Assembly: GCA_963802555.1 (NCBI GenBank)
Contig: CAWDJD010000003.1
Span: 88,971-152,970, forward strand
Origin: Terriglobales bacterium
GTDB taxonomy: Bacteria; Acidobacteriota; Terriglobia; Terriglobales; Acidobacteriaceae
DNA length: 64,000 nt
Direction of reading: 5' to 3'
The notes below the pieces were generated by a model that did no database searches, was not told the DNA's origin, and saw only the letters and a list, made by a program, of their open reading frames with translations. Positions 18,801 to 48,232 of this stretch are shown here, one piece after another (position 1 is the first letter of the stretch; every line of letters begins with the position of its first letter). The translations under genes were made by a program, and so were the position numbers.

Positions 18801-20142
18801 TTGAGCAAGGGTAAAACCGCGGTCATCGTAGGCGCCCAGTGGGGCGATGAGGGCAAGGGCAAGATCGTCGACGTCCTCTCCGAAGAGTTCTCCATCGTGG
18901 CGCGCTATGCCGGAGGACACAATGCCGGCCACACCGTCATCATCAATGGCAAGAAATTCATCTTGCAGCTGGTACCCTGCGGCGTGCTGCGCGCCGGATG
19001 CCGCAGCGTGATTGGCAATGGCGTCGTGCTCGATCCCATGGCCTTTCTCAAGGAAGTCGCGGCCCTGCGCGAAACCGGCGTAAAGGTCGATGGCAGCCTG
19101 TTCGTCAGCAATCGCGCGCACGTGATCCTGCCCTACCATCGCATGATCGAACTCGCTTCCGAAAATGCTCCCGGACGCGTAAAGATCGGCACCACTTCCC
19201 GCGGCATCGGCCCCGCCTACGAAGACAAAATGGGACGCCGCGGCCTGCGCGTGGCCGACCTGCTTGATCTCCAGCTGTTAAAAACGCACATCGAAAACGC
19301 CTGCCGCGAGAAAAATATGATCGCGCATGCGCTGTTCAACTCCGAGCCGCTCGATCCCGACAAGATGTACCACGAGTACGCCGAAGCCTCCGCCAAGATC
19401 GCGCCGTTTGTGACCGACACGGCGGTCATGCTCAACAACGCGATCAATCAGGGCGAATCGGTAATGTTCGAAGGCGCGCAGGGCACCATGCTCGACATCG
19501 ATCACGGCACTTATCCCTTCGTCACGTCGTCGAGCGCGACTTCGGGCGGCGCGGTCATCGGCACCGGCGTCGCACCCACCGCGATTGGCACCGTCATCGG
19601 CCTGACCAAAGCCTATTGCACCCGCGTAGGCGGCGGCCCGTTCCCCTCGGAACTTTTGGATTCGACCGGCGACCAACTTCGCGCCCGCGGCAATGAATAC
19701 GGCGCAGTCACGGGACGTCCCGCGCCGCTGCGGATGGCTGGACTTGCCGCTTTTGCGCTACGCTGGCATGATTAACGGCATCTCCTGGCTGGTGGTCACG
19801 AAGCTCGACGTGCTCGACGAAATGGCTGAAATCCCCGTCTGTGTCGGCTACAAAATCGGTGGCAAGACCACGACGGAAATCCCCGCGCACGCCAGCGGAT
19901 ACGATCCCATCGAGTGCGTTTATCAAACTCTGGCGGGATGGCGCACGCCGACGGTCGGTATCAGGCAATTCGAAAAATTGCCCAAAGCCGCCCGCGAATA
20001 CTTGGCTTTCATCGAGAAAGAAACCGGCGCCCGTGTTGGCATGGTTTCCACCGGGCCAGACCGTGAGCAAACCATATTTGTCGACGACTTTGCCGCCGAG
20101 ATGAAGTCGTTGACCGGAAAGAAAATCGAGACGCACGCATAA
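18801..20142 (+). pseudogene. purA: adenylosuccinate synthetase, reading frame broken by one extra base near 19719-19724
   Basis: Frame 0 reads GKTAVIVGAQWGDEGKGKIVD..GGHNAGHT.. up to GNEYGAVTGRP. The family sequence RRCGWLDLPLLRYA..VVTKLDVLD continues in the +1 frame (the 19693 ORF). Frame 0 stops at 19775. Confidence 0.9.
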
Positions 20143-20163
20143 ATTTAGGAGACGGAGCGATCA

Positions 20164-20451
20164 ATGGTAGTGCTGGCAGTAACGTGGATGGCAAAAGTGG
20201 GTCATGAAGCGGAAGTCGCCGCAATTTTCTCCAAGCTCACCGATGAGTCCCGCAAAGAACCCGGCTGCGTGGTCTATCAGGTCCACCGCCACAAGACCGA
20301 GCCGCGCCGCTTCTTCATCTACGAACAATACAAAGACGACGCCGCCCTCGAAGCCCACCGCGCCGCCCCGCATTTTCTCCAATACGCCAAGAAAGAATTG
20401 CCGAAATTTGCCGAGCGGGTTGAGGGAAATTTGTACGAACTGTTGGGATGA
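20164..20451 (+). CDS. antibiotic-biosynthesis-monooxygenase (ABM) domain protein
   Basis: 95 aa with ABM-like features: EPGCVVYQVHRHKTEPRRFFIYEQYKDDAALEAHRAAPHF. Confidence 0.75.
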   Translation: MVVLAVTWMAKVGHEAEVAAIFSKLTDESRKEPGCVVYQVHRHKTEPRRFFIYEQYKDDAALEAHRAAPHFLQYAKKELPKFAERVEGNLYELLG

Positions 20452-20466
20452 TGTGCGCAGGCCATT

Positions 20467-20667
20467 GTGATGACTGACATCATTTCGATTATGTTGGGGG
20501 TTGCAGCGCTCCTCGCTGCCTTCCTGAGCCCAAAATTTTATTGGATAAGAGGCCGCTACTCGAGTAGCAATAAAGAAGCCCCACAGTGGGCGGGGCGCCT
20601 GCTGTTCGGTCTTGGAGGTATTCTGTTTATTGTTTTCGGCGTCAGCCGGCTAATGCGCGGCATTTGA
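20467..20667 (+). CDS. small membrane protein (hypothetical)
   Basis: 66 codons with two hydrophobic segments (IISIMLGVAALLAAFL and LLFGLGGILFIVFGV). Confidence 0.4.
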   Translation: MMTDIISIMLGVAALLAAFLSPKFYWIRGRYSSSNKEAPQWAGRLLFGLGGILFIVFGVSRLMRGI

Positions 20668-46099: not shown

Positions 46100-46207
46100 C
46101 ACGGCTCCCAATGTGGCGAACTGCCACCGCTCGATCTCATGGTGCTCTTCGAAAAGTTAAAACCTTCGAATGGCTGCATCCCGCTACGATATCACCGCAT
46201 CTAAACA

Positions 46208-46236
46208 TTGACAACGATCCACTCAGGTCTTATGAT
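46208..46236 (+). promoter_or_regulatory. sigma-70-type promoter for dnaK (TTGACA-N17-TATGAT)
   Basis: TTGACA at 46208-46213 and TATGAT at 46231-46236 with 17-nt spacing. Lies 67 nt upstream of the dnaK ATG, which has an AGGAGG Shine-Dalgarno. Confidence 0.6.
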
Positions 46237-46302
46237 GGCATCGTTTCCCGGCATAATCAGATTGATTAGAAAGCACTTAGCAAGTTTCAGGAGGAGCCAG
46301 TT

Positions 46303-48232
46303 ATGGCCAAAATTATAGGAATTGACCTCGGAACGACCAACTCTTGCGTCGCCGTCATGGAGGGTGGGGAGCCCAAGGTCATCGCTAATGAAGAAGGTAG
46401 GCCGCACTACCCCTTCGGTGGTCGGCTTTACCAAGACGGGAGAACGGCTGGTCGGGCAGGTGGCCAAGCGGCAGGCCATTACCAATCCCGAGAACACGGT
46501 CTATTCGATCAAGCGGTTTATGGGACGCCGCTTCGACGAAGTGACGGAAGAAATCAAGATGGTGCCCTACAAGGTCGTCCAGTCGGGCGATCACGTTGCT
46601 GTGTTGGCACAGGGCAAGGAGCATACGCCTCCGCAGATTTCCGCCATGATTTTGCAGAAGCTGAAGAAGGCGGCGGAAGACTATCTTGGCGAAAAAGTCA
46701 CCGAAGCTGTGATCACGGTCCCGGCTTACTTTAACGACGCGCAACGGCAGGCGACAAAAGACGCCGGCCAGATTGCCGGCCTGGAAGTAAAGCGCATTAT
46801 CAATGAGCCCACGGCGGCGGCGCTGGCCTACGGTCTCGACAAGAAGAAGGACGAAACCATCGCGGTCTACGACTTCGGCGGCGGAACTTTTGATATTTCG
46901 ATCCTTGAAGTTGGTGAAGGCGTGATCGAAGTGAAAGCCACCAACGGTGATACACACCTGGGCGGCGACAATCTTGATCAGCGCATCGTCGATTGGTTGA
47001 TTGATGAGTTCAAGAAGGACGAAGGCCTCGACCTGCGTGGCAAGGGCAACGAAATGGCCTTGCAGCGTCTGCGCGACGCGGCGGAACGGGCGAAGATCGA
47101 GCTCTCCACCACGATGGAGACTGAGATCAATCTGCCATTCATCACTGCTGATGCCGGCGGTCCGAAGCATTTGGTCAAGAAGCTGACCCGGGCGAAGCTG
47201 GAGTCGATGGTGGAAGAGATCATTCAGCGCTCGGTTGGGCCTTGCAAGCAATGCTTGAAAGATGCCGGCGTGGATGCCAGCAAGATCGACGAAGTGGTGC
47301 TGGTCGGCGGACAGACGCGTATGCCTCGCATTCAGGCGCTGGTGAAAGACCTGTTTGGCCGGGAACCGCATAAGGGCGTGAATCCGGATGAAGTGGTGGC
47401 AATCGGCGCGGCGATTCAGGGTGGCGTGCTCGGCGGCGAAGTGAAGGACTTGCTGCTGCTGGACGTGACTCCGTTGTCGCTGGCGATTGAAACCCTGGGC
47501 GGCGTGGCGACCCCGATGATTCCGCGGAACACGACCATTCCTACTAAGAAGACGGAAACGTTCTCGACCGCGGCGGACAGTCAGACGTCGGTTGAGGTGC
47601 ATGTGCTGCAAGGGGAACGTCCGATGGCGGCGCAGAACCGCACGCTGGGCAAGTTCCACCTGACGGGCATTCCACCGGCACCGCGCGGCGTGCCACAGAT
47701 TGAGGTGACGTTTGACATTGATGCCAACGGCATCCTCAATGTAACGGCGAAGGACAACGCGACCGGCAAGGACCAGAAGATCACGATTACGTCGTCTTCC
47801 GGCCTGAGCAAGGACGAAGTCGAGCGCATGGCCAAGGAAGCCGACTCACATTCGGCGGAAGACAAGGCGCTACGCGAGACGATCGATTCGAAAAATCAGC
47901 TCGACTCCATGATTTACAGCGTGGAGAAGATGCTGAAAGAGCAGGGAGAAAAGATCTCCGGCTCCGATCGCGCCGATGTGGAGAACGCCGTGGCCGACGC
48001 CAAGAAAACGCTCGAAGGCGGCGACAAGGCTGCCATGGACAAAGCTCGCGAGACTTTAACCCAAGCCTCGCACAAGCTTGCCGAGCAGATGTACAAAGCG
48101 GCTCAGGCTCAGACGCCTCCAAGCTCTGGAGCTGCGCCGGGCGGCGATGCGGCGGCTAACGGCAACGGTCAGGCCAAGAAGGACGAAGGCGTGATTGATG
48201 CTGAGTATGTGGACGTCGAGGACAAGAAGTGA
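46303..48232 (+). pseudogene. dnaK: chaperone DnaK, frame broken by one extra base near 46399-46402
   Basis: [32 protein letters not shown] is in one frame. [19 protein letters not shown] through the C-terminal [10 protein letters not shown] is in the +1 frame. The first frame stops at 46734. Confidence 0.92.

Follow-up and report, generated by a model that had tools for sequence, protein, structure and literature searches.

The classical error of long-read sequencing falls within a homopolymer, where it takes the form of a deletion or an insertion. Frameshift errors are a recognised problem of long-read metagenome-assembled genomes (MAGs; PMC9262707), and when a long-read assembly of a heterozygous genome is collapsed, allelic variants that lie close together displace the alignment of the reads, giving rise to indels and to false frameshifts (Cosentino et al. 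2021, PMC8445201). Here we analysed a 64-kb stretch of DNA (the window), which is a piece of the chromosome of a Terriglobales-type acidobacterium with a GC content of 57%, and in which purA, dnaK, a thiolase gene and the gene for an FNR-like reductase are interrupted by seven one-base insertions. As with the indel errors of long-read platforms (Nanopore or PacBio), conserved genes are split into adjacent open reading frames (ORFs) with seamless homology, and the breaks disappear in short reads and in relatives; unlike in the classical form of these errors, none of the seven events lies in a homopolymer. The locus also recalls the artefact described for heterozygous genomes (PMC8445201), in which two in-frame alleles with nearby polymorphisms merge to a net indel, as CGT CCC and CGC CCG of purA would do to give CGTCCCGCGC. 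That case concerned a diploid eukaryote, whereas the haplotypes here would be those of co-occurring strains of a soil metagenome, and both alleles are documented at one of the seven sites. Because near-identical public reads and all relatives lack the extra bases, we consider it very likely that the seven frameshifts are errors of the assembly consensus and not features of the organism's DNA.

All seven insertions shift the reading frame by +1 and all lie in genes on the + strand (one in purA, three in the thiolase gene, two in the gene for the FNR-like reductase and one in dnaK). The genes and the positions of the surplus bases are as follows.

18801 to 20142, + strand: purA (adenylosuccinate synthetase), in two frames as a result of one extra base; identified by Pfam family PF00709 and by alignment to 14 relatives.
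19718 to 19722, + strand: extra base of purA, which can be placed at T19718 or, with the same effect, at G19722 in CGTCCCGCGC; context CG[T]CCC[G]CGC.
29494 to 30690, + strand: acetyl-CoA acetyltransferase (thiolase), running through frames 1, 2, 0 and 1 by way of three extra bases; identified by Pfam pieces.
30054 to 30056, + strand: thiolase extra base 1, GCTGCG[T]GCT, with the T at 30055; 14 relatives are one base shorter.
30134 to 30136, + strand: thiolase extra base 2, TTC[GAG]C; relatives carry a three-base codon, GAC, GCC, GGC or AGC.
30320 to 30321, + strand: thiolase extra base 3, AGAAT[CT]GTG; L161, L162 and 14 further relatives are one base shorter.
41876 to 42597, + strand: FNR-like FAD/NAD(P)-binding oxidoreductase, with two extra bases 8 nt apart and its Pfam domains in different frames.
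42188 to 42189, + strand: FNR extra base 1, ATC[TC]TG; the orthologue in L004 is one base shorter.
42197 to 42200, + strand: FNR extra base 2, CGTCC[G]CCCG; the orthologue in L004 is one base shorter.
46303 to 48232, + strand: dnaK, broken 96 nt past the start codon by one extra base, with Pfam HSP70 in two frames.
46398 to 46399, + strand: dnaK extra base, GG[TA]GGC; 11 relatives are one base shorter.

In each of the four genes the coordinates of the Pfam family profile abut across successive frames. For purA, positions 1-298 of Adenylsucc_synt (PF00709) are found in the ORF at 18723-19775 and positions 298-416 in the ORF at 19693-20142. The thiolase is matched by Thiolase_N (2-189 and 226-260) and Thiolase_C (10-122) across three frames, the reductase by FAD_binding_6 (2-97) followed in another frame by NAD_binding_1 (23-108), and DnaK by HSP70 from 1 to 35 and then, in a second frame, from 30 to 599. 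Local read-through peptides retain the canonical motifs of their families (GRPRRCGW, NEEGGRTTPS and GTGIAPF), and the complete read-through thiolase shares 93-95% identity with intact proteins (mostly of 393-408 amino acids) along 98-100% of its length. The initial annotation of this DNA had proposed that about seven single-base +1 changes are confined to four conserved genes, that the family sequence continues unharmed in the next frame, and that premature stops and degraded motifs are absent. Alignments do show seven events, to which the tblastn and Pfam screens described below add none; the Pfam profiles run on in all four genes, and no premature stop or degraded motif was seen in purA, the thiolase gene, the FNR-like reductase gene or dnaK. 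The positions proposed at that stage were correct to within a few bases, except that the event written as caa[g]gac in the thiolase gene fits better at a point 4-6 nt further upstream.

Sequences of relatives were drawn from 80 loci around dnaK orthologues and from 80 contigs of metagenomes that show synteny with the 14-37 kb part of the window, to which two closer relatives (L161 and L162, with 82-88% DNA identity) were added by way of their thiolase homologues. The 14 syntenic metagenome contigs used in the thiolase alignments have approximately 72-79% DNA identity to the window. When aligned to syntenic relatives, the window has exactly one surplus base at each of the seven places, and the extra base is absent from every aligned orthologue (more than 20 relatives across the sites), so that the frame is contiguous in relatives at all seven sites. 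At the purA site 14 of 14 relatives have one base fewer, and removal of either 19718 or 19722 restores the frame equally well. The three thiolase sites gave the same result in every relative (X45, X6, X24, X47, L161, L162 and 14 further loci). In particular, L161 is identical to the window over 41 nt around the first thiolase site apart from the missing T, and an alignment of L162 with the whole thiolase gene (1176 nt) contains exactly three gaps. Contigs of X6, X24 and X47 have one base fewer at 30055, those of X6 and X24 lack 30320, and a contig of X45 (with about 97% identity) was clipped exactly at the first and second thiolase sites, its loose ends being one base short.

The finding that every event is +1 and that the downstream frames are fully conserved is what would be expected if the genes were functional and their products depended on programmed +1 ribosomal frameshifting, on slippage during transcription or on RNA editing. 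Indeed, genes of the prfB type likewise have a +1 change inside an otherwise intact conserved gene. Unlike those genes, however, the four genes studied here lack a conserved shift site, an in-frame stop at that position and any common stimulator resembling a Shine-Dalgarno sequence, and their orthologues are unshifted: in more than 20 relatives there is no shift at any of the sites. Moreover, the seven contexts have no motif in common, and there is no slippery run, stop codon or rare codon right at the sites, the zero frame continuing for 54-336 nt. Near-identical DNA reads, furthermore, already lack the base, and thus no correction at the level of RNA is needed. We regard recoding of this kind as having almost no chance of being the explanation.

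The reads in question come from a comparison of the window with Logan contigs of public short-read runs of soil metagenomes. The same strain was found in several small soil-metagenome runs of a 2024 study (P1) and in one run of a second study (P19), and in many places its Logan contigs match the window over 150-450 nt with 0 mismatches and 0 gaps; contigs of X1 and X3 have 0 mismatches and 0 gaps everywhere they cover the window. At four of the seven sites (that of purA, both of the reductase gene and that of dnaK) contigs that are 99-100% identical to the window lack the extra base, which supports consensus error at these sites, and here the frame in near-identical independent sequence is contiguous. 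At the purA site, a 199-nt contig covering 19683-19882 (X2 record 10) aligns without a mismatch and with a single gap, at 19718, and in each of three contigs of X1 the single gap is at 19722. In the reductase gene, a 151-nt contig covering 42152-42296 (X51 record 10) has 1 mismatch and two gaps, which are at 42189 and 42197. At the dnaK site, contigs of X24 (1 mismatch), X25 (3 mismatches) and X32 (2 mismatches; depth 143) each have one gap, at 46398, and in one read comparison that position was the sole indel in contigs of at least 98% identity over 31-51 kb. Thus, the extra bases are missing from near-identical independent reads at four sites and from all relatives at seven.

We also looked for frame breaks in the remainder of the window. 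In a tblastn screen of approximately 7,900 ORFs from 160 related loci against 14-58 kb of the window, collinear frame switches with many supporting related ORFs were found only in purA, the thiolase gene, the FNR-like reductase gene and dnaK. Between 0.7 and 18.5 kb most ORFs of at least 150 amino acids have full-length Pfam domain matches, as do four genes between 60.1 and 62.0 kb; a few ORFs in these two intervals have no Pfam match or a partial one, and these neither support nor exclude a break. In sum, neither tblastn (14-58 kb) nor Pfam (0.7-18.5 and 60.1-62.0 kb) revealed a further frame break in the 64-kb window beyond the seven sites.

These results bear directly on the idea that the four genes are genuine, very recent pseudogenes, in a lineage that carries seven inactivating insertions for which other gene copies or cross-feeding in the community compensate. 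The insertions are, after all, present in the sequence as given, paralogues are possible in the part of the genome outside the window, and short-read contigs could in principle stem from sister strains. Against this, the purA base is missing from a contig with 100% identity, and those of the reductase gene and dnaK are missing from contigs with 99% identity. Furthermore, two of the genes would have taken two or three independent insertions and yet show no stop codon, loss of motif or excess of substitutions, all seven changes are insertions at polymorphic sites outside homopolymers, and no frame break was found in the window's other genes by the tblastn and Pfam screens. It also counts against pseudogenes that purA and the main dnaK are nearly essential in free-living bacteria. 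We therefore consider it very unlikely that the lineage carries such pseudogenes, and we give slightly less credence still to a specific form of the idea in which a soil lineage has just lost purA, dnaK, the thiolase and the reductase through a burst of +1 insertions, for example as a result of an insertion-prone polymerase or a repair defect, and lives by cross-feeding or on paralogues.

If the extra bases are errors of the consensus, then their contexts ought to be informative as to how they arose. In no case does the extra base lengthen a stretch of identical bases, whereas 44% of random insertions would do so (P = 0.017), and no frame break occurs at any of the 156 homopolymer runs of at least 5 nt in the window. 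The classical homopolymer error of long reads was considered and rejected as the cause, since no extra base extends a same-base run (0 of 7 sites) and all 156 runs are clean; the initial annotation, which described the contexts as mostly not long homopolymers, was thus accurate in this respect as well. Each event can instead be read as two alleles written side by side: CG[T/C] in purA, GG[T/A] in dnaK, [T/C]TG and CC[G/C] in the reductase gene, and GC[G/T], AT[C/T] and G[A/G]C in the thiolase gene. Both members of each pair occur among relatives, and six of the seven pairs are synonymous, compared with 46% expected for random insertions outside homopolymers (P = 0.04). The purA site is the clearest example. 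There, public reads of a single study contain two in-frame haplotypes, CGT CCC CGC in X1 and CGC CCG CGC in X2, and the sequence in the window, CGTCCCGCGC, is an exact merge of the two.

This pattern is consistent with a collapsed consensus of mixed strains, probably one derived from long reads. Under such a scheme, the reads of two co-occurring strains would be collapsed, and an error model that prices a missing base below a mismatch, as in long-read polishing, would lead the consensus step, at seven strain-polymorphic positions, to write both alleles of a single-nucleotide polymorphism adjacently (X and Y giving XY), at a cost of +1 base each. Conserved genes would be hit preferentially if reads or contigs of several related populations accumulate on them. 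That conserved genes attract coverage from multiple strains is suggested by the depth of X32 at dnaK, which is 111-350 compared with about 0 in the rest of the window, and by raised read depth over purA. (At identities of at least 98%, X32 covers only the neighbourhood of grpE, dnaK and dnaJ, at 45600-50300, with a depth of up to about 350; an abundant related population in X32 seems to share a near-identical dnaK segment.) Among the matches listed, the nearest public relatives are MAGs of soil, peat and moss, with at most 92% amino acid identity in DnaK and approximately 80-83% DNA identity, and several of these nearest relatives are long-contig MAGs. The contig itself most likely belongs to a MAG from soil, and we infer both the sequencing platform (the assembly would be a long-read MAG) and the exact consensus mechanism.

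The contexts of the insertions and their distribution are equally relevant to the notion that the extra bases entered the sequence only once it had been assembled, whether the record was edited, on purpose or by mistake, or the contig was mis-polished with reads from a foreign strain. The latter event is itself a form of assembly error and would look no different in the data. Random edits, on the other hand, would not cluster in four genes: neighbouring events within genes lie 81, 184 and 8 nt apart, and the probability of at least three gaps of no more than 300 nt under uniform placement is 3.5e-4. Nor would random edits avoid neighbours of the same base or reproduce natural pairs of alleles, and at purA two natural haplotypes combine exactly into the sequence of the window. 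We consider changes made after assembly to be highly improbable. Accordingly, of the three explanations offered in the initial annotation, that of indel errors in the assembly is borne out by the near-identical reads and by the contiguous frames of all relatives, whereas those of recent pseudogenisation and of edited or engineered sequence are not supported.

Several points weigh against the explanation of consensus error by merging of alleles. First, the read evidence comes from public runs other than the assembly's own, and no indexed run exceeds a share of 0.31 of the words sampled from the window. Second, in twelve runs no contig of at least 98% identity spans 30055, 30135 or 30320, such that the thiolase sites rest on relatives. 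Third, both alleles are present in public reads for purA only; for the remaining six sites a second allele is seen in relatives only and, in the case of dnaK and the reductase gene, only in more distant relatives and not in near-identical reads. Finally, the statistics that bear on juxtaposition of alleles are only moderately significant (P = 0.04 for synonymous pairs and P = 0.017 for avoidance of same-base runs).

The value of these findings is that of a quality flag for the assembly only. Automatic annotation would label purA, dnaK, the thiolase gene and the FNR-like reductase gene as pseudogenes or fragments, which would lead to wrong inferences about metabolism and about essential genes. 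The type of error (non-homopolymer insertions at strain-polymorphic, mostly synonymous sites in conserved genes) is relevant to screens of MAGs for pseudogenes or recoding, and filters that are aware of homopolymers will miss it.

A number of other candidates for frame breaks were rejected. In the tblastn screen, a few weak candidates for a switch, with 1-8 supporting ORF pairs, coincide with gene boundaries (at approximately 21.4, 22.3, 23.6, 39.7 and 44.0 kb) and have the appearance of neighbouring genes or of antisense shadow ORFs. A frame plot based on codon usage indicated candidates at 14.3-15.7, 20.7-21.3, 43.7-44.2, 59.9-60.4 and 61.8-62.3 kb. The candidate at 59.9-60.4 kb is accounted for by two separate genes, at 60150-60416 and 60429-61004, which encode a KH-domain protein and RimM, and those at 20.7-21.3, 43.7-44.2 and 61.8-62.3 kb are unsupported: the tblastn screen either gave no more than one ORF pair or did not extend to them. 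The candidate at 14.3-15.7 kb corresponds to an uninterrupted ORF (14284-15645) for a pseudouridine synthase that resembles RluB and has a long, basic tail. This protein has S4 and PseudoU_synth_2 domains followed by a basic C-terminal tail of approximately 200 amino acids, with many Pro, Ser and Ala residues; codon signal is weak in this tail, and relatives offer no DNA match to it.

Outside the genes, some metagenome contigs of at least 88% likeness have small indels relative to the window at 18581-18582, 23742-23752 and 30819-30845, which may be differences between strains or further consensus errors. The intergenic regions also contain a 16-nt motif, GTCGAAGGACCCCTAC, of which there are 10 copies with no more than 2 mismatches, compared with 0.02 expected. 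The copies are at the following positions (a slash joins the members of a pair).

22381-22396, 30764-30779/30799-30814, 41738-41753/41776-41791 and 48587-48602: copies of GTCGAAGGACCCCTAC.
50019-50034, 52993-53008/53029-53044 and 61058-61073: further copies of GTCGAAGGACCCCTAC.

The copies often form inverted pairs with a spacing of approximately 35 nt, immediately following or preceding genes, and the motif has the appearance of a REP-like repeat. Contigs of short reads switch from one copy to another, which creates false joints in the read comparison.

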